A stretch of 38,363 nt of DNA from a virus (lineage: Duplodnaviria; Heunggongvirae; Uroviricota; Caudoviricetes), in IMG/VR virus record IMGVR_UViG_2541047946_000018, positions 1-38,363 of that record; one strand, written 5' to 3'. This document shows, in pieces, positions 2,913-29,702 of this stretch (the stretch's first letter is position 1; every line of letters starts with the position of its first letter). The notes under the pieces were generated by a model that was given only the letters and a program-made list of their open reading frames with translations, did no database searches and was not told the DNA's origin. The position numbers and the translations under genes are program-made.

Positions 2913-3605
2913 ATGAATACCAAACCTTCCATCTTTTCCTTTGAGTCATCCTGCCAGATCCGTATGTTCATGATTGACGGAGAACCTTGGTTTGTCACCA
3001 AAGATGTGTGCAATGCTTTGAATATTGATGTTACACAAGCGAGAAAACTTGATAAAAAAGGCTGGAACAAAAAGGGGCTGTATTCAATACAGACCCCTGG
3101 TGGAATACAAGAACTATCCATCGTTTCAGAATCAGGTCTCTACATCCTTATTCTGCGTTGCAAAGAGGCAATGACTGAGGGAACGAGAGCATTCAGATTT
3201 CTTGAATGGGTTACAGGTGAGGTTCTTCCTCAGATCCGCCGCACCGGAAGTTACATTAAAAACTCGCTCCCGCAGGAAGAACGCATAAAGATGGTTGCCG
3301 ACCAGGTAGCCAACGCCACAGCATCAGCAGTGATGCAGGCAATGAAGATAGAGAACAAAACCTACAGCGCCCCGCTGAAGCCCGGCTACCGTAGCCTGAT
3401 TCATTCTCCGTCTGGTGTTCTCGGCCTGACGGAGAACTCACTGCTGATGAATCTGCTGAACCAGTTACAGGAAGACGGGCACGACGTATCGGGCGCGGCG
3501 GCGGAGCTGACCACCATGTTCTGCTACATCGTTGGTGTGAGCAAATGCCTGCGTGATATCCAGACGCACGCGGAGTACATCAACGACAAGGCAGGGTTCT
3601 TCTGA
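2913..3605 (+). CDS. Bro-N domain antirepressor-like protein
   Basis: ATG 2913 with AGGTGA RBS. N-terminal Bro-N signature (IRMFMIDGEPWFVTKDVCNALNI); C-terminal domain homologous to the 1272..1529 product. Confidence 0.7.
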   Translation: MNTKPSIFSFESSCQIRMFMIDGEPWFVTKDVCNALNIDVTQARKLDKKGWNKKGLYSIQTPGGIQELSIVSESGLYILILRCKEAMTEGTRAFRFLEWVTGEVLPQIRRTGSYIKNSLPQEERIKMVADQVANATASAVMQAMKIENKTYSAPLKPGYRSLIHSPSGVLGLTENSLLMNLLNQLQEDGHDVSGAAAELTTMFCYIVGVSKCLRDIQTHAEYINDKAGFF

Positions 3606-3735: not shown

Positions 3736-4062
3736 ATGACAAAACTTGGATTCGTGATGAGAGGTCCGGTAAGAAGCGGAACTCATGCAAAGCGTAGCAA
3801 GAGTCGTATTTTTACTGGTAAGGTTGTAGCACGTAAATCAGCTATTGGCTCGTTCAATAGTGAAAATGCGGCATTGCGCCATATTTTTATCAGCACAAAG
3901 CCAAGAGCATCCGCTGATGTGCATACAATGTCTATTCCTATCACAAAGAATATAAAGCGGATAAAAAAGCTCTCATCTGCAGAATCAAAAGAGATATCTT
4001 TCCGCCAGCTTAACTCATTAGAAACGCATATGAAGGAAGAGGAATTCGATGTTTTTGAGTGA
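3736..4062 (+). CDS. Small basic partner protein of YafO-like paralog B (putative antitoxin), acidic C-terminus
   Basis: ATG 3736 with GGAG RBS; stop overlaps the downstream start by 14 nt. Confidence 0.5.
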   Translation: MTKLGFVMRGPVRSGTHAKRSKSRIFTGKVVARKSAIGSFNSENAALRHIFISTKPRASADVHTMSIPITKNIKRIKKLSSAESKEISFRQLNSLETHMKEEEFDVFE

Positions 4063-4561
4063 GTATAGCGGGAAGGTTATACCTACTGGTGAGTTTAAAA
4101 CTGATGACTTTCTGATTTCGCTAAAAGATGCTTTTAAACAACACTGGCGTCATGGTCATCATCCTGATCTGGGAAAAGATACTCTTTTTGAAAGACCAGA
4201 GGAAGTATTAGGCTTCCATCTCAGAAAGGTTCATGTCAATATTGGTGAATATGCATCATATTCATACTCATGTACTGAACAGTGTTGGGATGAGTGGTCA
4301 TATGGATTGATTGATGAACAAGGAAATTACAGGCCAAAACCAACCAGTAACGCATATCTCATATATGCAGTCAATGAAATAAGAGATGCAGCCTTACTAG
4401 CTTATTGGGACCCGCCCGCACACACCAAAGCTAACGCAAAAGTTTGGATGGATTCCGTATTGAATTTCACAAAATTATTTCATGAACGAACGAATACAGC
4501 TCCACTTAGTAGAAATGTTTATCCGTGGGATTATTCGTACAAATCCAAAAAGCCTGCATAG
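4049..4561 (+). CDS. YafO-like putative toxin, paralog B
   Basis: ATG 4049 with GAAGGAAGAGGAA RBS; same motif set as paralog A. Confidence 0.55.
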   Translation: MFLSEYSGKVIPTGEFKTDDFLISLKDAFKQHWRHGHHPDLGKDTLFERPEEVLGFHLRKVHVNIGEYASYSYSCTEQCWDEWSYGLIDEQGNYRPKPTSNAYLIYAVNEIRDAALLAYWDPPAHTKANAKVWMDSVLNFTKLFHERTNTAPLSRNVYPWDYSYKSKKPA

Positions 4562-4642
4562 TAGTTTTTTATGGACGAAACAAAAGTCAGTGCTACACTC
4601 ATTGACGCCACATTGAGGTGGTTTATAGATGGAAATTTCACA

Positions 4643-4804
4643 ATGAAAAAAGCATTTGCTGCACTGTTCGTTTTGTTGTCTCTGGTAGCTTCAACTCAGG
4701 CCTTTGCCGGTCGTTGTCAGCACGACAGCGACACTGCTGCTGACGGCTCCCGCTGCGGTGGGCGTTCTGCGGATTCCCGCCCGGGTGGCGGTGGCATTCG
4801 TTAA
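4643..4804 (+). CDS. Possible small secreted peptide (53 aa), third gene of the paralog-B operon
   Basis: Canonical Sec signal MKKAFAALFVLLSLVASTQAFA; no terminator between 4561 and this ORF; terminator immediately after. Confidence 0.35.
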   Translation: MKKAFAALFVLLSLVASTQAFAGRCQHDSDTAADGSRCGGRSADSRPGGGGIR

Positions 4805-4810
4805 AAACAA

Positions 4811-4832
4811 GGCCGCGAAAGCGGCCTGTTTG
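4811..4832. terminator. Bidirectional intrinsic terminator between convergent genes
   Basis: GGCCGC-gaaa-GCGGCC hairpin flanked by AAAAACAA upstream and TGTTTG downstream. Confidence 0.65.
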
Positions 4833-4833
4833 A

Positions 4834-5685
4834 TCACTGTGCAGTTTTCGCTGATCGATTTTCAGCTCTAAATTCAAGAACCGTTTCAATATTTCTTTCC
4901 TTCAGCATATCAATAACATTTTTATTCATTTGACTATCACTGGTTAATAACTGGTAAACGTTGCTTCTCTCTTTATCAGAGTTTTCTTTAACAGCTGCTT
5001 TGCATGCCAAATGCTTATTGAAATTTTCTACATCGCTAGTACAGGAATTTACGGCTGCTGATGAAATATCAGACGCTGAAGAAACACCATCATCCAAACG
5101 TTTTATAGCATTTTCTATACATGAGTTAAGGGAATAAACGACAACTGAGCGATACCCTTCAGACGCACACCATTCTAAATTTCTTGAAGGATCGAGTGGT
5201 TTTACTTCGCTGGATTGAATTAACTTGTCAAAAACTGACTTATATTCAATCTGTTTTTTATCTATAGCCCATACTTCAGTAGCTGATTTATAATTCCCCG
5301 TATGCCTATTAACATCAAACCCATGTTTTATAAGCAAATCTGCCCATGAAAGATTTATTGATTCATTGTTATGAGGCCATTTTCCTGTCAGAACCGCCCC
5401 CATAGACCCCATATATCCGCCATATGATGGTATAGCACCATGGCTCAGTAACTTCTCAGCAACCACAGGGCAATTAATTACATAAGAGGCGTAAAGCCCA
5501 TTCCATAAAGCCCCTCTATAGTAATCGCCACGATTAGGTTCTTTTAAGTCGATAGCCTTTGATAATTGTTCACACGTTTTGCATGCATCAAAGTTATCCT
5601 TATTGCATTGCAATGAACTGGCAGCTGTAGGATTTACAGAGACTATTGAAAGCACTATGCCAAAAAACAAATTTATTTTTTTCAT
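4834..5685 (-). CDS. AT-rich moron: secreted protein with possible ankyrin-like repeats
   Basis: Signal peptide MKKINLFFGIVLSIVSVNPTAASS; ANK-like segments (LLSHGA, LLIKHGFDVN); low GC versus neighbours; starts 1 nt after the gp16-like stop. Confidence 0.6.
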   Translation of the reverse strand: MKKINLFFGIVLSIVSVNPTAASSLQCNKDNFDACKTCEQLSKAIDLKEPNRGDYYRGALWNGLYASYVINCPVVAEKLLSHGAIPSYGGYMGSMGAVLTGKWPHNNESINLSWADLLIKHGFDVNRHTGNYKSATEVWAIDKKQIEYKSVFDKLIQSSEVKPLDPSRNLEWCASEGYRSVVVYSLNSCIENAIKRLDDGVSSASDISSAAVNSCTSDVENFNKHLACKAAVKENSDKERSNVYQLLTSDSQMNKNVIDMLKERNIETVLEFRAENRSAKTAQ

Positions 5686-8600: not shown

Positions 8601-9076
8601 CGAACGACAGCGCCGAACGGAATAAACATAGAAATCGCATTGAATGGATCTGCTAATCTCATTGCTACAGAAGAGACTGTACCAGCAAATCCCAAGCCTG
8701 AATTGTATTCCATGTCAGCTCTCTGCTGATCGATTCGATGTTTAATTGCCATTGTTTCTTCAGGCGAACCGGAGTTGATAAACGAATCTGCAAAATCTTC
8801 ATAGCCTTTAATATCTGCTGCATCGTTATCAAATGGGTTATATCCTTCAACCCTGTCAAACTGACTGAAAGGAGCACTGGCAATAAAGCTACCCAGCGTG
8901 TTATCTATACGAAATGCTGCTTGTCTAGACCTTTGAACGCGTTGATCACTGGTAAATGGGTTCACAGCAGAAAGCAAAGAAGGTGTTTCCATATAGAAAT
9001 TACTGTCATCAGGTGCTGCTATTTGCTGAATATCCTCGCCAAGCAACTCTTTAGGATCCTGTTCATATATCGGCAT
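5687..9076 (-). CDS. Internal virion/ejection protein, T7 gp16-like by position and size (1129 aa)
   Basis: Large ORF in the T7-like gene order after the gp15-like gene; coiled-coil-rich centre. Confidence 0.55.
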   Translation of the reverse strand: MPIYEQDPKELLGEDIQQIAAPDDSNFYMETPSLLSAVNPFTSDQRVQRSRQAAFRIDNTLGSFIASAPFSQFDRVEGYNPFDNDAADIKGYEDFADSFINSGSPEETMAIKHRIDQQRADMEYNSGLGFAGTVSSVAMRLADPFNAISMFIPFGAVVRGGRIAETAGRFALANAAGSVASEAALQATQEARSPMESVSNVVVDALVGGILGAGAQLLAGPGAREAVVNSVGNHLRGMDSPQSIGAAQVFNTTLDQEQLAGLGLANKTLSVTPAGRLAQSPSLVSRQINQQLAENNYFFAKNDEGLATFTAVETKIKQYDAMLYKQMEATRDAYQQYSKSVSARGVKRMNFIDFNEAVGMAMRRGDQSDIPEVSQAAARIRPIFETTKARMQELGILPEDIDVVTAKSYLPRIYKFDKILSDRTEFRGRIANWIQGISAKGADKAGQRIERINSLLKTAEESAPRADALASEIAEAEKWSGKKILLMEELDKRNKLISQETDTQARLTRIEKELAETSSEKLQARMMKESSDLKTRLDDIAQAKSELPVYQRHMELLDNPRKYRSELRRLQKRANSTTRLNASRERALKQMEPLSREEAEDAADEIVNKIIGAPSGLVPADIIPERLVGRAGFTKSRTLLIPDERIEDFLESDVNYIMESYLRQVAPEIELTAQFGRKDMGEQIRQVSEEYTRLIKEAKTPKRRAVLEKQREADIRDITAMRDRLLGTYGAPQDPRSFFVRAGRVARNINFLRLLGGMTVSAATDLMRPMMQHGLRKSLGPMVSMLKNMDSVKIATRDLREMAVGLDYVLSTRTKAIADLTDPYSRRSAAERGLNWMTQKFGNWTLMNQWNSALKSWSGMIVQSRILDAARQVSAGGTLSKSEMRKMAQVGINEDVLRRIGEQFGKHGEDMDGLLTGHSHLWDDRFAREIFQSAVLKDVDSVIVTPGVGDTPLFFSKEGWKMITQFKTFIFAQHNRVLVSGIQQGDAAFYLGALGTIALGSMVYMMKQKLSGRDIDYSWNNLVKEGIDRGGMLGWLSEPLNTVENISGGRFGLGAMFGAPPVSRFQSRNAIGALLGPTFDLGGDAATVANGVLNGEFDSQQTHAVRKMLPFQNLWAISPLLNKVEEQMK

Positions 9077-11790
9077 TATTTGCCTCCTGCGTATATATTG
9101 CTCGGAAGGTAATTGGCTGAACCATAACCGAATGGTTTGGTCAGATCTGGAGGAGTATATCCATCTTTATTGCTGAACTGCGGCAGCGGATTGCCTTCTC
9201 TCCGCACTCTAGCCTCATCAACACGCTGTTGCTGGAACTGAATGGTTTGCCTGTACATTGGAGATGTCAGCTGATCCGGCTTGAAACGAACAGGGAGACC
9301 ATTTTCTCCAATATAATTTCTCGGTTCTATCGCTCCGTTTGCGTCAGGCTGTAAAACCATAACAGCATAACTCCTATCCCTTGCCGTAAGGCCATCAGAA
9401 ACAAGTATTAAGTCCGTATCACTGCGAGGACCGCCAAAGGATTTTGATTTAAGCTCGCGTTTTTCCTGCTCCCACTGCCCCTGTATCCAGTTACCAGCAC
9501 CATTATTTACTCCGTACAATGCCTCAGGTGCATACTTCATAACCTCTGCTTTGCCATTAACCGTAGAAACTCCCCAAGTGGTTCTGATCATGGCATTGGT
9601 CATTTTCTCAGCCTGTTCTGCATCGCCACCTGTCTGTACAAAGTTAGCATCGTAAATTGTCTGGTAATCTCGCTGATAGGCCGCATTTGATTTTCCTGGA
9701 TCGGTAATATCCGGAGACCACGAACCAAAGGAAGTCAGACTGCTGGCGTTATTTTGTGCAGCAGTTGCCCTCGCCGCGACATATTTTTTGTCTCGCATGG
9801 CAGTGGAAAGCATCTGTTTCATTCGGTCATCCTGTTGGAACACCTGGCTGTAAGCCATATCAACAGCCTTATCCTCCGGCACGCCAGCGCGGGAATAATC
9901 GTAAACCTTGCCGTAAAATGCCATCGTACTTTTATCAAGTGTTGCCGCTGCCGCCGGATTATTATCGAATAACTGACCGTAGAATTTTGCCATCGGGACA
10001 ACCAGCGCAGGATCTCTTGATGTTGCTCCACTGTTAAGCATTGTTTTAACCTGAGTTGGTATCATGCCGCTTTTAGTTGTGACGGTGACCAGTGTATTGA
10101 TGCTCTGCGGATCAGATATGGAAAACGAAGGCGCGATATCCTGCGCGAAATAACGGTCTACCGCTGCCTGATTGTTTTTGTCGTTCGGGTCCAGCGGGAA
10201 GTTATTTTGCATTGAAGACACGAACCTGTTTCTTCCCTGCTGAATCTCCCACTCCCTATCCATCTCTTTAAATTTGGCCTGCATTTTCTCCCAGCGTTGC
10301 TGGTTAGCTGCAAATCCAGGAGCGTTTGGATCCTGTGGACGTAAACGTTCAAGAATGTCTTGTCGTCCTTCTGGAGTGAGGTCTTTAGCGGCACCAATGA
10401 CACCTCCATATTGTATCTGCGCCTGCATATCCTTCCACTTCATAGCGCCAATGCGCGGACCATTGGCCCGGATAAAATCGTCCTCAGAAGGTAACTTCTC
10501 AGGTTTCAATCCTTCATCAAGGGCTGAATATGCATCTTTAACTACGGTGCTAAGCTGGTCCGCATACTGCTGGCGGTACTGATTTCTCAGCTCATTAGCC
10601 TGCCTCAATGCCTGTATTTGCATTTGAGGGCTCATAGCATCAAATGCCGCATTGCCCGTATAACGCTTAGGTGAATCAAGGTTAGTTAGACCAAGGGCTG
10701 CCGAGATACCAGTTTCAAGCTGTTCGGTGCTATAAGGCATACTGCCATTTTCGTGTTTAATAATCCCAGCACATAAAGCAGCTAGTGTCTTTGGGTTAGA
10801 GATATCAAGCTGATCATTCTCCCCAACACCAAGCTCACCACACAATGCCCTAATATAAGCATCAGTATTATTACCATCACTAACCGGAGCATAGCGATTA
10901 ACAATCTCGCTAACGGTGTCATAGCCTTGACGCTGGTAAGACAACATATTTTTACCCAACGCGCGGATTCCATGCTCAGGGGTAGCAAACGTTGCAAAAC
11001 GTCCATCGCTACCGATCTGACCTTCCCACGGGTTAGATTTGCTCGCTTCAATATTACCAGGGTTATTATTACGTAAACCACGAGCATCCAATGAATTACC
11101 ATGTGATATTGCACGACTCACACCATCAAGATCCCCTGGCTCTCCATTAACCTGAAGAAACTCGTTGTATTTTTGAGCGATATTTCCTATCCATGCTTGC
11201 TGCCCCATTTGTTCCTTGAGCTGAGTTTTCTGCTGAACACGCCACTCATCAGGAAGCCCATGCGCATCAGCGTATTGATCAATAGATTCAAATCGCTGCT
11301 TGGCTAAATCGACAAATGCTTGGTTATCGCTATATAGCCCCGCAGACTGAGTGACAGCCAATGCATTTCCTGACAAATACGTTTGATCTTGGAATTGCTG
11401 AAACTGCCCAACTTCATATCGACGTGCCTGATTGTAATAAGACTGCATAGACTGCTGGAGTTGAAAGGATAATTTATTCCTTTCCTCACTTTCAGGAATT
11501 GAGCCTAATAATGCCTGAGCCCTTTCCTGCATATTTTTCATAACAGCGTCACTCTGACCAAGAGCGTTTTTACCCTGTTTAGAAATCAGCCCACTTTCAG
11601 GGTTGTTAATCTGGTCATCTGCAAATTGGTTAAATTGCAGTAACGCCTCCTGGGCCATAGCAACATTCGCTTTCTGCCTGGCTTCACCATATGCCACCGC
11701 ATACTGATCTGCGACATTCGCCAGCACCTGACCTGCTTGAGGAACATCGAAGATCTGAAAACCACCGGTTTGCACACCACGACTTTGCAC
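9076..11790 (-). CDS. Internal virion protein, T7 gp15-like by position (904 aa); GTG start 18 bp from the IS end
   Basis: ORF begins GTG 11790 with weak RBS; contains a conserved NNPGNI-containing domain of unknown function; the IS sits immediately upstream. Confidence 0.5.
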   Translation of the reverse strand: MQSRGVQTGGFQIFDVPQAGQVLANVADQYAVAYGEARQKANVAMAQEALLQFNQFADDQINNPESGLISKQGKNALGQSDAVMKNMQERAQALLGSIPESEERNKLSFQLQQSMQSYYNQARRYEVGQFQQFQDQTYLSGNALAVTQSAGLYSDNQAFVDLAKQRFESIDQYADAHGLPDEWRVQQKTQLKEQMGQQAWIGNIAQKYNEFLQVNGEPGDLDGVSRAISHGNSLDARGLRNNNPGNIEASKSNPWEGQIGSDGRFATFATPEHGIRALGKNMLSYQRQGYDTVSEIVNRYAPVSDGNNTDAYIRALCGELGVGENDQLDISNPKTLAALCAGIIKHENGSMPYSTEQLETGISAALGLTNLDSPKRYTGNAAFDAMSPQMQIQALRQANELRNQYRQQYADQLSTVVKDAYSALDEGLKPEKLPSEDDFIRANGPRIGAMKWKDMQAQIQYGGVIGAAKDLTPEGRQDILERLRPQDPNAPGFAANQQRWEKMQAKFKEMDREWEIQQGRNRFVSSMQNNFPLDPNDKNNQAAVDRYFAQDIAPSFSISDPQSINTLVTVTTKSGMIPTQVKTMLNSGATSRDPALVVPMAKFYGQLFDNNPAAAATLDKSTMAFYGKVYDYSRAGVPEDKAVDMAYSQVFQQDDRMKQMLSTAMRDKKYVAARATAAQNNASSLTSFGSWSPDITDPGKSNAAYQRDYQTIYDANFVQTGGDAEQAEKMTNAMIRTTWGVSTVNGKAEVMKYAPEALYGVNNGAGNWIQGQWEQEKRELKSKSFGGPRSDTDLILVSDGLTARDRSYAVMVLQPDANGAIEPRNYIGENGLPVRFKPDQLTSPMYRQTIQFQQQRVDEARVRREGNPLPQFSNKDGYTPPDLTKPFGYGSANYLPSNIYAGGK

Positions 11791-11861: not shown

Positions 11862-12188
11862 ATGACTAAAAATACTCGTTTTTCCCCTGAAGTCCGTCAA
11901 CGGGCAGTCCGTATGGTTCTGGAAAGTCAGGGCGAATATGACTCACAATGGGCGACAATTTGTTCCATTGCTCCAAAGATTGGCTGTACGCCGGAGACTC
12001 TGCGTGTCTGGGTTCGCCAGCATGAGCGGGATACCGGGGGCGGTGATGGAGGGCTCACCACCGCTGAACGTCAGCGTCTGAAAGAGCTGGAGCGTGAAAA
12101 TCGTGAACTGCGCCGCAGTAACGATATCCTTCGCCAGGCTTCCGCTTATTTTGCGAAGGCGGAGTTCGACCGCCTCTGGAAAAAATGA
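11862..12188 (+). CDS. IS629 OrfA (IS3-family transposase N-terminal HTH part)
   Basis: [31 protein letters not shown]...; recognised IS629/IS3411-type OrfA; A6 slippery run at its 3' end. Confidence 0.85.
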
Positions 12189-13075
12189 TGCCACTGCTGG
12201 ATAAGCTGCGTGAGCAGTACGGGGTCGGACCGCTATGCAGCGAACTGCATATTGCCCCGTCAACGTATTACCACTGTCAGCAACAGCGACATCATCCGGA
12301 TAAACGCAGTGCCCGTGCGCAGCGCGATGACTGGCTGAAGAAAGAGATACAGCGCGTATACGATGAAAATCACAAGGTATACGGTGTGCGTAAAGTCTGG
12401 CGTCAGTTGTTACGGGAAGGTATCAGAGTGGCCAGATGCACTGTGGCACGTCTCATGGCGGTTATGGGACTTGCCGGTGTTCTCCGGGGTAAAAAGGTCC
12501 GTACGACCATCAGCCGGAAAGCCGTTGCCGCAGGCGACCGCGTAAACCGTCAGTTCGTGGCAGAACGACCTGACCAGCTGTGGGTGGCTGATTTTACTTA
12601 CGTCAGCACATGGCAGGGCTTCGTCTATGTGGCGTTCATCATTGATGTGTTTGCCGGATACATTGTGGGGTGGCGGGTCTCATCGTCCATGGAGACGACA
12701 TTCGTGCTGGATGCACTGGAGCAGGCGTTATGGGCCCGTCGACCGTCCGGCACGGTCCATCACAGTGATAAAGGTTCTCAGTATGTATCGCTGGCCTACA
12801 CACAGCGGCTTAAGGAAGCCGGATTACTGGCATCAACAGGAAGTACAGGCGACTCGTATGACAACGCGATGGCGGAGAGCATCAATGGTCTTTACAAAGC
12901 GGAGGTAATACACCGTAAGAGCTGGAAAAACCGTGCAGAAGTGGAACTGGCCACACTCACGTGGGTGGACTGGTATAACAATCGACGATTGCTGGAAAGG
13001 CTGGGCCATACTCCTCCGGCAGAAGCAGAAAAAGCTTATTATGCTTCCATCGGAAACGATGATCTGGCAGCCTGA
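12185..13075 (+). CDS. IS629 OrfB (transposase catalytic DDE domain)
   Basis: Overlaps orfA in the -1 frame; rve-type integrase core by family knowledge. Confidence 0.85.
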
Positions 13076-13135: not shown

Positions 13136-13711
13136 TCAGTAACCTCCTATTTTGAATCGGGAGTCAGAATTCATAAAACCTGAGTTAGATAACATTGGCG
13201 TCCCACCACTAGATGTACTTCCTTTAGAGAACGGACTCCACGTCCCACCAAACATCTGGTACGCACCGTATGCCTTCAGAGGCGCAGTGAGCAATGTTGT
13301 TGCTGCTCCCACATTCCCCTGTTTACGGGCTGAACTGGCTTCTGCTTTATAGTTGGCAGCCTGAACCTGATAACCGTAAGCCTCGCGTTGCGCGTTATTC
13401 ACCGTCGTCAGCGAATCAAGAGCGCCAAACTGGGCAGTGTCGCCAAATATATCCAGCGCGTTACCGGTAGATAAATCGGCGCCGGTCGCCCCCATTGTCG
13501 CCGCTTGAGTACCAAGCCGCTGTCGGGTCTCTCTGCGCCGTTGCTCAGCTTCAGCGTTACCTCTGTTTATTGCATCATTTGCCTGAGCAGTGGCTATATC
13601 TGCGTTCGCTTCTGCAACCTTCGAGACATACTTTCCCTGTTGGTACTGGGTGTATGCCTGAATGCCACTCATGGCGAGCATTGCGCCACCAGCAATAACC
13701 GGATCGCACAT
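13136..13711 (-). CDS. Internal virion protein, T7 gp14-like by position and size (191 aa)
   Basis: Ala/Gln-rich low-complexity protein following the gp13-like gene; stop is 18 bp from the IS right end. Confidence 0.5.
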   Translation of the reverse strand: MCDPVIAGGAMLAMSGIQAYTQYQQGKYVSKVAEANADIATAQANDAINRGNAEAEQRRRETRQRLGTQAATMGATGADLSTGNALDIFGDTAQFGALDSLTTVNNAQREAYGYQVQAANYKAEASSARKQGNVGAATTLLTAPLKAYGAYQMFGGTWSPFSKGSTSSGGTPMLSNSGFMNSDSRFKIGGY

Positions 13712-21828: not shown

Positions 21829-22035
21829 TTACTGACCAAGCAGCGTTTTACCGCTGGTATTAGCGGTTGATGTGTCGCCCTGAGAACCGGTAAGCAGCGT
21901 AGAACTACGACCAGCAGCAGCGCGACGGCGACGTGTTTCTTCGTCGCGGGCATCAACAACGGCGGCATCCTGCTCCTGTGGTGCTGCCTGAACTTCTGGT
22001 GTTGCAGGCACTGATGGTGAGCTACCCATGCACAT
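21829..22035 (-). CDS. Small disordered virion protein (T7 gp6.7/7.3-like composition)
   Basis: 68-aa Ala/Gln/Thr-rich ORF with GGAG RBS immediately upstream of the portal gene; the alternative frame 21816..22055 looks like junk. Confidence 0.45.
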   Translation of the reverse strand: MCMGSSPSVPATPEVQAAPQEQDAAVVDARDEETRRRRAAAGRSSTLLTGSQGDTSTANTSGKTLLGQ

Positions 22036-22124
22036 ATCAATGACTCCGTACGCAATTAAATTATTACCAATTTAACCACATATGATTTATTTATCGTAGA
22101 AGGTTGACATTTAACGCGTGAATT

Positions 22125-22141
22125 ATTACCTTTCGGGTAAC
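22125..22141. promoter_or_regulatory. Operator site ATTACCTTTCGGGTAAC with adjacent TTGACA -35 hexamer (22104..22109), AACCACATA element (22074..22082) and half-site (22063..22068)
   Basis: Same cassette architecture as at 1128..1196, 2590..2646 and 29686..29764. Confidence 0.55.
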
Positions 22142-22220
22142 CAAAGAGCTCATTCCGGTTACTAACCTGACTGGCTTGTCGTTAAATTAAACAGGTGGAG
22201 TGAGCTTTTATTTTGAGCAG

Positions 22221-22360
22221 TACGGCGTATGGCACATGCGCCGATAGCGGTCTGGATACGTTTAAGGGGCACCCTCCCTTGCTCGGGCAAACGAACCAGG
22301 TAGCCGGAATGTGCAAGTCGAGCGGTTTTATTCCGCGCACGGGGATTCACCATCCCGGCG
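22221..22360 (+). repeat. Conserved non-coding element, copy B (leader upstream of tRNA-Arg), homologous to 2724..2870
   Basis: Same ordered sequence blocks as copy A; GC-rich; no ORF of 60 aa or more on the plus strand. Confidence 0.4.
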
Positions 22361-22462
22361 ATTCGGTGTGACGCCTCGGAAGAGACGAGGGTACAACGAT
22401 GAGAGCATTTATGGAGCCGCGACAAAGTGTGGCGCCTTAACAGGCTAAGTGCTCTCAGCGTT

Positions 22463-22539
22463 GTGGCATTAGCTCAGTTGGACAGAGCAACCGCCTTCTA
22501 AGCGGTTGGTCGCAGGTTCGAATCCTGCATGCCACGCCA
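22463..22539 (+). tRNA. tRNA-Arg (anticodon UCU), argU-like
   Basis: Cloverleaf: acceptor GTGGCAT/ATGCCAC, D-arm TAGCTCAGTTGGACAGAGC, anticodon stem ACCGC/GCGGT with loop CTTCTAA, T-arm GCAGGTTCGAATCCTGC, discriminator G plus CCA; close to E. coli argU. Confidence 0.9.
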
Positions 22540-22582
22540 GAATCACGCCTAAGGACCGTGATGCCAGAAGTTCCAGGTGCTT

Positions 22583-22627
22583 GGCGGTGATGGTTTCCCT
22601 TGAAGGACTATCACCGCCCTTTTTACA
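22583..22627 (+). terminator. Intrinsic terminator downstream of the tRNA
   Basis: GGCGGTGAT...ATCACCGCC stem followed by CTTTTT. Confidence 0.55.
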
Positions 22628-22702
22628 GCAGGACGCCATTGCGATGACTTCATGCTGTAAACCCGTACAGCCACGGAAGGCATAACTCATTGCTTCCAGT
22701 TC

Positions 22703-22727
22703 GCCCGGTTCGCCGGGCATTTTTTTG
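22703..22727 (+). terminator. Intrinsic terminator
   Basis: GCCCGG-ttcg-CCGGGC hairpin followed by ATTTTTTT. Confidence 0.7.
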
Positions 22728-22741
22728 CTTGATGACCGCAA

Positions 22742-22758
22742 ATTACCTTAAAGGTATA
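22742..22758. promoter_or_regulatory. Operator site ATTACCTTAAAGGTATA overlapping a TATAAT hexamer (22755..22760)
   Basis: Palindrome immediately upstream of the moron ORF. Confidence 0.55.
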
Positions 22759-22761
22759 ATC

Positions 22762-23580
22762 ATGAAAAACTTCAAGGTAATTAGCATGTTTGAATCGTTT
22801 AAAGAGCTGTTTTTATCTACTGCCAATACTGCCGTGAATCGAGCCAAAAACCCTGTGCTTGGTGCTTTTGTTATGTCCTGGTGCGCCTTCAACTGGAAAT
22901 CAATTCTTTATCTATTTTTTAGCAAATCAAACATAATAGATAAAATTTCATATATCTCAGATAACAGCACATGGAAAACTGTTATGTTTTATCCATGCTT
23001 ATCTGTAATTGCTATCTGCTGCCTATTACCATGGGTAAACAATATCATTAACGTATGGCAAGCAAAGCCTCTTGATAATAATGACTCAATCGAAAATCAC
23101 CTGAAGGCAAGAAAAATCCAGCGTGAAACCAGACTGCAGAGGTTATTGGCTAAAAAAGATGTTACATACGACAAAGTTAAGACTGGCGCGGAAAAAGACA
23201 TCCAAGAGATGAAAGAAGAGATTATTCGATCAAAGAATAGTATGGGGGAATTGACTGCTGAGTTGAAAGCTAAAGATGACGAATTGAGATCCGCCAGTGC
23301 TCAGTTAGCAGCTCTAAATCATTCATTAAAAGAGATATCGGAAACTCTTGGAAGAATGAATGAGGCATATAAGACCCTCCAAAATGATTTCGACGAATAC
23401 AAACTCAAATACCCTGAAAAATCTCAAATAAAAAGTCTTGCACTTGGCAACGGCCAAACAATTAGCAACTTTTTGGAGCAACACAACTTATCCGGATTAA
23501 AATCTGGTAAGCCAGACGTTTTTAATAACTTTGGTGTTCTATCTGGATTATCAGGTTTCGAGGATAAAAATAAAGACTAA
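22762..23580 (+). CDS. AT-rich moron: membrane protein with two predicted TM helices and a long C-terminal coiled coil; candidate superinfection-exclusion or abortive-infection factor
   Basis: Start ATG 22762 or 22786 (both have RBS); hydrophobic segments VLGAFVMSWCAFNWKSILYLFF and VMFYPCLSVIAICCLLPWV; low GC; stop codon overlaps the TerL stop tail-to-tail. Confidence 0.6.
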   Translation: MKNFKVISMFESFKELFLSTANTAVNRAKNPVLGAFVMSWCAFNWKSILYLFFSKSNIIDKISYISDNSTWKTVMFYPCLSVIAICCLLPWVNNIINVWQAKPLDNNDSIENHLKARKIQRETRLQRLLAKKDVTYDKVKTGAEKDIQEMKEEIIRSKNSMGELTAELKAKDDELRSASAQLAALNHSLKEISETLGRMNEAYKTLQNDFDEYKLKYPEKSQIKSLALGNGQTISNFLEQHNLSGLKSGKPDVFNNFGVLSGLSGFEDKNKD

Positions 23581-29685: not shown

Positions 29686-29702
29686 TTTACCTCTGAGGTA
29701 AT
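29686..29702. promoter_or_regulatory. Operator site TTTACCTCTGAGGTAAT abutting the nuclease start codon
   Basis: Consensus palindrome; AACCACATA element at 29707..29715. Confidence 0.55.

Follow-up and report, generated by a model that had tools for sequence, protein, structure and literature searches.

Very few examples of processive antitermination by RNA alone are known: put, considered a peculiarity of HK022-like phages, and the less well understood EAR (eps-associated RNA) of Bacillus, which acts in cis and is reported to promote processive antitermination within the exopolysaccharide operon. Phages also carry structured non-coding RNAs of other kinds, including the C4 antisense RNA, which is matured by RNase P in P1, and GOLLD and ROOL, large and ornate RNAs borne by phages and prophages of Firmicutes and other groups that are about 600-800 nucleotides (nt) long, often lie beside tRNA genes, and have Rfam entries. 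Here we describe a structured RNA element encoded at positions 22212-22462 of a 38,363-nt phage sequence, IMG/VR record IMGVR_UViG_2541047946_000018 (hereafter the window, meaning that whole stretch), and compare it with these systems. Positions are those of the window, and features lie on its plus strand unless stated otherwise. The put RNAs of HK022 and HK639 (putL and putR) act in cis and independently of protein factors, and mutations in the zinc-binding domain encoded by rpoC, such as Y75N, block their read-through. In put, stem I contains a G12·U32 wobble and a C26-G29 bulge, whose U28 inserts into the β′ zinc-binding domain of RNA polymerase and is essential (PMC9378689). Lambdoid phages with a yfdP-type left operon have no N homologue, and a put-like RNA was suggested for them by a 2025 analysis of phage LLS (PMC12315714).

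The element, approximately 250 nt long, belongs to a large and so far undescribed family of structured RNAs in phages and consists of a core of about 185 nt and a 3′ hairpin. The core (22212-22398) was the sole match in the window to the covariance model of the family, R1 (152.3 bits, E 1e-45). Alignments of the family show near-invariant junctions alternating with hairpins that vary in sequence and length. From 5′ to 3′, the core contains the Pa hairpin (22223-22227 with 22239-22243, CGGCG/CGCCG here and CGGCG/CGYCG in the family, with CAUG at 22235-22238), P1b (22248-22250 with 22304-22306, CGG/CCG), P2 (22251-22255 with 22296-22300, UCYG(G)/(C)CRGG), which encloses a variable hairpin, Pc (22342-22345 with 22353-22356, 4 base pairs (bp) and the loop UUCACCA) and Pd (22374-22378 with 22386-22390, 5 bp and the loop GAAGAGA). 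The 3′ hairpin domain, present in most members, is formed by P5 (CAACG 22394-22398 with CGUUG 22459-22463; CAAC(G)/(C)GUUG in the family) and P6 (GAGAGCA 22401-22407 with UGCUCUC 22450-22456), the interior of which is variable. One pseudoknot, PK2, pairs CACC in the Pc loop (22348-22351) with GGUG (22365-22368) and is supported by covariation, with CG in 54 sequences, AU in 7 and no mismatches. A second, PK1, is proposed only and would pair GCACAU in the Pa loop (22232-22237) with AUGUGC (22309-22314); both PK1 and P1b are invariant, so covariation cannot judge either.

Comparison across the family supported this fold. Among 30 representatives, 97.7% of the alignment cells assigned to helices were paired and 11 pairs had changed on both sides. 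In an alignment of 65 distinct sequences derived with the covariance model, 97.4% were paired, compared with 26-43% when the partners were slid by 1-3 columns (26-44% over both sets), 13 pairs showed compensatory changes, and none of 500 shuffles reached the observed values. P6 also covaries by inspection (GAGAGCA/UGCUCUC, AAGAGCA/UGCUCUU, GAGAGUA/UACUCUC, GAUGGCU/AGUCAUC). Since the frequent G-U pairs would be A-C on the opposite strand, the plus strand is the RNA strand; minimum free energy z-scores failed to separate the two (-2.2 plus, -2.6 minus). A protein-coding reading of the open reading frames (ORFs) of 52-87 amino acids (aa) over 22162-22425 was rejected, as no reading frame stays open across the majority of the 65 members and their lengths show no triplet periodicity.

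BLAST found 22222-22462 at 70-83% identity in phages unrelated to phiV10, the Escherichia phage that, with its relatives (Uetakevirus, epsilon15-like), is 98.5% identical to the window around the element. The carriers include P1, P7, D6, SJ46 and RCS47, the lambdoid phages cdtI, mEp460, mEp390, Ayreon, 2H10 and Stx2a- and Stx2c-converting phages, Uetakeviruses of Klebsiella, Enterobacter and Salmonella, Klebsiella phage SopranoGao, and a Stenotrophomonas phage. The original prediction for this stretch had suggested a search in other prophages, and many lambdoid and Stx prophages do carry the element. It is present in 1,840 of 5,426 complete E. coli genomes, with 554 of its places on plasmids (P1-like). 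The invariant 19-mer GGTAGCCGGAATGTGCAAG occurs in at least 120 IMG/VR contigs and in 24 species-representative genomes, nearly all from Enterobacterales (Kosakonia, Citrobacter, Klebsiella, Enterobacter, Kluyvera, Buttiauxella, Erwinia and others). The sequences form 37 clusters at 88% identity, a collection in which divergence is under-sampled because it was seeded by exact matches to the 19-mer only. Two contigs of metagenome-assembled genomes (MAGs) carry labels from outside this range. A full-length element (171 bits) lies at 1148-1317 of L278, a 1.7-kb contig of a MAG labelled Bacillota that is most likely mis-binned enterobacterial phage DNA, and L266, from a MAG labelled Oscillospiraceae, has the 19-mer and a covariance model match of just 7 bits.

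An Rfam search of 21950-22800, even at E<=10, returned a tRNA and no other family. GOLLD and ROOL are much larger than the element and no Rfam model for them matched here; EAR is another cis-acting RNA antiterminator, but is unrelated to the element in sequence and host. We regard the family as new: it corresponds to no Rfam family, no feature is annotated over it among the RefSeq E. coli matches listed or in GenBank phage records, and literature searches by topic and by sequence string, which did not cover the put-like sequence list of King et al. 2011, gave no description of the RNA.

In lambdoid prophages, the element lies 90-250 nt downstream of, and co-oriented with, genes for CI-like repressors, an order that recurs with at least five different repressors (HTH plus Peptidase_S24, or HTH-only). 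In E. coli O26 strain 11368, the cI-like gene ymfK and an intrinsic terminator precede PL (TTGACA-16-CATAAT between operator-like repeats); the element lies about 45 nt further on, and about 120 nt separate it from two strong intrinsic terminators, after which comes yfdP-yfdQ-yfdR, with no promoter-like site between the two terminators and these genes. The same order was found in mEp460, mEp390, BUCT708, an Stx2a phage and contig L026. In Uetakeviruses (the window, phiV10, Tyrion, PAT1 and Klebsiella phages), the element comes after an operator-overlapped TTGACA-17-TACCTT, which precedes it in many loci of this type, and before a tRNA-Arg or a long hairpin and two conserved terminators. In P1, it is located between tRNA-Ile and ban, within the C1-repressed ban operon. 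Taken together, the lambdoid, Uetakevirus and P1 contexts indicate that the transcript carrying the element is repressor-controlled and early.

Individual loci add detail to these layouts. The minus strand of L026 has two copies of the element (3992-4163 and 4799-4968), about 800 nt apart and flanking a 166-aa ORF on the opposite strand (4269-4769); upstream of them are a cI-like gene, a terminator and a PL-like promoter, in what looks like a moron insertion with duplication of the leader. The ban operon of P1 (L001 769-870, 1326-1479 and 2911-3183) contains a dicF-like region, tRNA-Asn, tRNA-Thr, tRNA-Ile and the element, all before ban, and the 3′ hairpin domain is missing from the P1 copies.

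In most lineages, P1 and a few others excepted, the element has strong terminator-like hairpins 240-670 nt downstream, and the genes that follow differ: ban in P1, tRNA-Arg in the window, yfdP in lambdoids, small ORFs in Tyrion. With its order of promoter, structured leader, terminator(s) and genes, its very highly conserved junction nucleotides, and a GUUGUGG that can pair with either the upstream CAAC (P5) or a downstream CCACAAC to give possible alternative structures, this layout would suit a conditional attenuator, riboswitch-like or sensing a protein or a tRNA, that decides whether transcription stops at the downstream terminators and so times the early-left operon. We consider such an attenuator improbable, given that the terminators lie 100-400 nt past the core and do not overlap it, with a whole tRNA intervening in the window, and that P1, Uetakevirus and lambdoids share nothing in their downstream genes, unlike the regulons of riboswitches. 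Neither a conserved class of downstream gene nor a terminator that competes with the 3′ part of a sensor, the features of riboswitches and attenuators, was found.

In lambdoids, the element occupies the position of nutL and putL, and a nut-like site recruiting an antitermination complex of host Nus factors, a phage protein or both deserves consideration. A nut site for N-type antitermination combines a single-stranded boxA with a boxB hairpin and goes with an N-type protein encoded downstream. The boxA of lambda and rrn is GCUCUUU; the 3′ strand of P6, UGCUCU(Y), resembles it, and many members have a short hairpin, UGCGCA-GGCUGA-UGCGCA, after this strand. Set against this resemblance, the boxA-like stretch is base-paired and covaries as the P6 helix, the core greatly exceeds any nut site in size, no phage protein is common to the P1, Uetakevirus, lambdoid and Lastavirus carriers, and these phages have no N homologue (PMC12315714). 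A nut-like role appears to us to have a small probability.

The closest described counterpart in this position is put. Like putL in HK022 and HK639, the element of O26 strain 11368, mEp460 and the Stx2a phage lies in the nascent early transcript just downstream of a repressor-controlled PL, in the absence of an N protein and ahead of terminators. Loci with put and loci with the element also have much of their surrounding DNA in common, including the upstream cI/PL region (74.5% over 620 nt between L229 and L273; about 90% over the promoter segment between L155/L224 and L038), a long downstream hairpin that we call module B (95% over 119 nt when the put locus L202 is compared with Tyrion, and 92% over 130 nt for L140 against L058), and the sequence CATTGCTGTGTGTAGTCTTTGC of the first terminator, T1. 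The two RNAs themselves were mutually exclusive among the loci examined.

The element and put share one identical 15-nt motif, ACGGCG...CAUGCGUCG, which forms a 5-bp helix with a G·U wobble and contains the CAUG through which put touches polymerase. The Pa hairpin is identical in sequence to the base of put stem I (A-CGGCG...CAUG-CGUCG), wobble and CAUG included, and about half of the element members have G-U at the wobble pair of put. Among the occurrences of the pattern CGGC[GA]-N6-20-CATG[CT]G[CT]CG in 5.4 Mb of fetched phage DNA, searched on both strands, 125 were in elements, 84 in put and 3 elsewhere. Beyond this motif, no similarity between the two RNAs was detected. A profile of 44 putL sequences, which finds HK022 and HK639 (E 1e-19), found nothing in about 130 element loci or in the window; the R1 covariance model found nothing in 68 put loci, HK022 or HK639, and nhmmer profiles of the element found nothing in HK022, HK639, LLS or ST64B. 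Rfam searches of the HK022 put region and of the Tyrion leader returned nothing relevant, and since put is missing from Rfam, a negative result there is uninformative about put. A second similarity to put, between GGCGGGUUCAGGAUGAAC of put and GGCGAUUCGGUGUGAC of the element, was dropped because the GGUG of the element pairs with the Pc loop and covaries.

The two RNAs also differ in architecture. The put family is defined by about 74 nt with stem I and stem II and the succession GUCGAACGGCGCGAC..UAAACCAUGCGUCGG..GGCGGG..CGGCAAU, which the element does not have. With 185-250 nt compared to 74, the element is built from Pa, P2, Pc, Pd, P5/P6 and one or two pseudoknots, whereas put consists of two stems with a triplex, and put stem II has no clear counterpart in it. 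In addition, the element occurs outside lambdoid PL leaders too, in the P1 ban operon, the Uetakevirus cassette and Lastavirus. Given its different architecture and the lack of detectable similarity past the motif, we leave the element outside the put family and propose instead that it works in a put-like manner.

Specifically, the element may be a new and larger class of put-like cis-acting antiterminator RNA, a reading whose chances we put just short of even. Forming the 5′ leader of an early transcript under repressor control, the nascent element would fold and remain bound to the RNA polymerase that made it, via the first hairpin with its put stem-I motif, the contact probably lying in the RNA-exit/β′ zinc-binding region. 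The modified polymerase would then read through intrinsic terminators downstream: those guarding the early-left operon of lambdoid prophages and, in the window, T1 and T2, which follow tRNA-Arg and precede the gene at 22762. RNase P cleavage at the tRNA would free the element with its 3′ end at 22462. The presence of the element in phages with unrelated proteomes (P1, Uetakevirus, lambdoids and Lastavirus) is consistent with a host-supplied partner. Binding of RNA polymerase and antitermination are what we would infer by analogy with put. Somewhat more tentatively, the family might represent a second, structurally distinct and far more widespread RNA that makes polymerase terminator-resistant with no protein factor, in which the put contact motif is set in a pseudoknotted scaffold and which would be the missing early antiterminator of N-less lambdoids, many Stx phages among them, and also be used by P1 and epsilon15-like phages.

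Several findings weigh against a put-like role. First, homology to put is undetectable outside the 15-nt stem-I motif, the fold is different (about 185-250 nt with pseudoknots versus 74 nt with two stems), and, if PK1 forms, the CAU of CAUG is base-paired instead of bulged as in put. Second, the P1 element lies in the middle of the ban operon, after tRNA-Ile and with no strong terminator behind it. Third, the plus-strand unit of the window is short and the gene after T1 and T2 has an operator-controlled predicted promoter of its own, so read-through is not obviously needed there. Fourth, the PL leaders of LLS (L135 7731-8360, minus strand) and ST64B (L136 27237-28053, minus strand) lack the core but keep the 3′ hairpin/module B and both terminators, and the core is therefore not indispensable for a leader of this type. 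Lastly, a frequent tRNA or tRNA-like neighbour is equally suited to a processed, trans-acting RNA, and the put-like case is a computational one, built on sequence and context.

The tRNA next to the element bears directly on that trans-acting alternative. The final G of P5 (22463) is G1 of tRNA-Arg (UCU; 22463-22539; ARAGORN, and 73.3 bits with the Rfam tRNA model), the sole tRNA in the window, so RNase P cleavage would be expected to leave the 3′ end of the element at 22462; as in the maturation of C4, processing by RNase P, here via the tRNA, may apply. In this way, RNase P, cutting at the tRNA or tRNA-like module, and other RNases, acting on the 5′ side, could excise a stable RNA of about 250 nt from the early transcript. 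The free RNA would bind a host or phage macromolecule early in lytic growth; it might, for example, be a decoy for, or an inhibitor of, some host enzyme or defence system, or a polymerase ligand in the manner of 6S RNA. The elaborate fold and near-invariant junctions resemble those of RNAs that bind proteins or ligands, the closing helix of the element ends exactly at G1 of tRNA-Arg, and a tRNA-Arg follows the element in several lineages, as a tRNA-Ile precedes it in P1. Module B elsewhere has an acceptor-like closing stem and sometimes a T-arm. The mobility of the element among unrelated phages, including short, moron-like cassettes that end in terminators such as that of the window, is also in keeping with an RNA gene, of which the terminators can simply be the end. 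We nevertheless judge a trans-acting RNA unlikely, with no identifiable target or partner, and with the equivalence of its slot to that of put and the shared put motif left unexplained. In lambdoids, two terminators separate PL from the whole early-left operon and no promoter follows them, so something must overcome them in any event.

The slot of tRNA-Arg in the window is held by module B, with the form GUUGUGGUG...CACCACAAC, in Tyrion, mEp460, LLS and ST64B. This long hairpin, which follows both put and the element, has a closing stem of either GUUGUGGUG...CACCACAAC or GGGGUGUGGUG...CACCACACC and a variable interior, and was located at L004 (Tyrion) 2672-2805, L133 3238-3355, L135 (LLS) ~8110-7950 on the minus strand and L136 (ST64B) ~27585-27450 on the minus strand, as well as in the put loci L140, L202, L235 and L254. 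The interior often opens like the 5′ half of a tRNA (GUGGUGA-AU-GCGC-AGGCUGAU-GCGC), and in some loci it closes with a T-arm and acceptor-CCA; GUUG can pair with the upstream CAAC (P5) or the downstream CCACAAC. The 5′ module of ST64B has ACGGAGCCGUUUAACCCACGGCGUCGGAG, which is put-stem-I-like, and CCUGUAGCCAGUGCAAGCG, which resembles GGUAGCCGGAAUGUGCAAG of the element, and the LLS and ST64B leaders hint at further, intermediate types of module in N-less lambdoids.

The element had originally been described as one half of a duplicated regulatory unit, the other half (site 1) lying upstream of a Bro-N gene near the left end of the window. As had been observed, both sites (the element being at site 2) do carry an ATTACC half-site, the box AACCACATA and TTACC-N5-GGTAA; immediately to the right of these is a GC-rich stretch that is structured and non-coding, and a plus-strand gene lies downstream. 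Site 1 is, however, a P1/P7-type immunity-I unit, in which an antisense RNA precedes an antirepressor-like gene. The box AACCACATA (2590-2598), a promoter-like TTGAAA-18-TATTAT predicted from sequence (2602-2631) and the operator TTACCTTTGCGGTAA (2631-2645) are followed by isrK with its own terminator (2682-2758; Rfam RF01394, 74.7 bits, gathering threshold 50), the C4 antisense RNA (2777-2864; Rfam RF01695, 78.6 bits, gathering threshold 45) and a gene of the Bro-N family, of antirepressor type (2913-3605; Pfam Bro-N, E 1.8e-13). The C4 loop CCUUUGUAG (2821-2829) is a perfect 9-nt complement of CUACAAAGG (2896-2904), a stretch spanning the Shine-Dalgarno sequence of this gene. Like C4 and isrK, known from immunity I of P1/P7 and from Gifsy-1, the site-2 element is a phage non-coding RNA after an operator-controlled promoter, but it fails both Rfam models, has a different fold, is about three times larger and has no evident antisense target. 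Directly after it come the tRNA and two terminators, with no protein gene and no C4-type complement to a ribosome-binding site.

Searches in both directions separated the RNA parts of the two sites. The site-2 element had no isrK or C4 match at E<=10, and neither the nhmmer profile of its family nor the R1 covariance model, the latter even at E<=10, found anything at site 1. Smith-Waterman alignment of 2580-2912 with 22060-22462, the comparison that had been proposed as a check, recovered only the 19-nt operator, with a score of 28 against a shuffle maximum of 29. The four ordered blocks that had been noticed are present (GGCACAT at 2730 and 22231, GGGGCACC at 2796 and 22266, GTAGCCGG at 2826 and 22300, TTCACCA at 2853 and 22346), but they do not belong to an alignable homology of 150 nt. 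The collinear chain amounts to 30 nt in exact matches of at least 7 nt. Of 1000 dinucleotide shuffles, a single one attained this, and of 377 real-sequence controls none did; the nominal p of about 1e-3 loses significance once the number of possible region pairs is corrected for. Moreover, GGGGCACC falls in a hairpin that is variable across the site-2 family, and the GGCACAU of isrK is absent from the isrK consensus. That site 2 is a diverged duplicate of an isrK/C4-type unit is therefore very improbable: the four shared 7-8-mers in order, the same operator module before both sites, and a by-eye alignment of the isrK 3′ part with the Pa region of the element (about 19 of 26 positions) speak for it, and it is contradicted by the profile searches both ways, by an alignment limited to the operator, and by the location of the blocks at positions unconserved in one or the other family. 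The same low probability applies to a relic of a duplicated tRNA-containing segment, as neither ARAGORN nor the Rfam tRNA model detects a tRNA in 22212-22462; structural selection on the element is strong in phages with no adjacent tRNA, and most members of the family have no tRNA nearby. What remains of the duplication is the operator/promoter module, which is common to both sites and phage-wide, while the RNA parts belong to different families; the description of 22212-22462 as a conserved, structured, non-coding element and possible regulatory RNA or leader after a repressor-controlled promoter holds, although not as a copy of site 1.

This module recurs throughout the window. Allowing at most one mismatch, we found 15 sites of the TTACC-N5-GGTAA operator compared to 0.61 expected, including sites in the presumptive immunity region near 31.7-32.9 kb and one at 22743, ahead of the next gene. 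The exact box AACCACATA has four plus-strand copies (1141, 2590, 22074 and 29707), of which the first three each have an operator 40-52 nt downstream and the last is flanked by operators at 29687 and 29749. Given this recurrence of operator and box, the cassette is the general repressor-controlled promoter module of the phage and not a private duplication; the box is probably a second regulatory site or part of divergent leftward promoters.

At site 2, the cassette is a short plus-strand insert that separates minus-strand terminase genes from minus-strand portal and head genes. The operator half-site ATTATTACC (22060-22068) and the box (22074-22082) occupy the divergent control region that separates the minus-strand structural genes (ATG at 22035) from the plus-strand cassette, a layout also found in Enterobacter phage Tyrion. 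They are followed by a promoter-like sequence predicted from TTGACA (22104-22109), a 17-nt spacer and TACCTT (22127-22132), the latter overlapped by the operator palindrome TTACCTTTCGGGTAA (22126-22140), and we infer from these signals that the promoter is active and transcribes the cassette. Downstream of the element and tRNA-Arg, the intrinsic terminators T1 (22583-22625, a 14-bp stem followed by CTTTTT) and T2 (22703-22726, GCCCGG-TTCG-CCGGGC followed by ATTTTTTT) are both conserved in Tyrion. The interval of about 100 nt between them (22626-22726 in the window, L004 3050-3166 in Tyrion) is likewise conserved, has its own terminator at the end and could be a separate small RNA, for which Rfam gives weak, sub-threshold matches only (RyhB-like, E ~1.5). 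A second operator-controlled promoter is predicted from 22732 (ATGACC-17-TATAAT, with the operator TTACCTTAAAGGTAT at 22743-22757), ahead of a 272-aa ORF (22762-23580) with no Pfam family. Elsewhere in the window, an IS3-family insertion sequence at 11862-13075 (two overlapping ORFs and an Rfam ALIL frameshift pseudoknot at 12143-12259, 120 bits) sits between the large minus-strand ORFs 9076-11790 and 13136-13711, from which this copy of the phage is probably a prophage with an insertion.

The annotation of the window is thus corrected to an isrK/C4/Bro-N immunity unit at site 1 and, at site 2, a different leader RNA followed by tRNA-Arg and two terminators, both under the phage-wide operator. 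Whatever its mechanism, a pseudoknotted RNA of about 250 nt that is supported by covariation and occurs in a third of E. coli genomes merits a family entry. If put-like, the element would provide a second, independent RNA solution for structural work on the control of RNA polymerase by nascent RNA and a compact genetic part for the control of read-through, and it would answer how many N-less lambdoid phages switch on their early-left operons.

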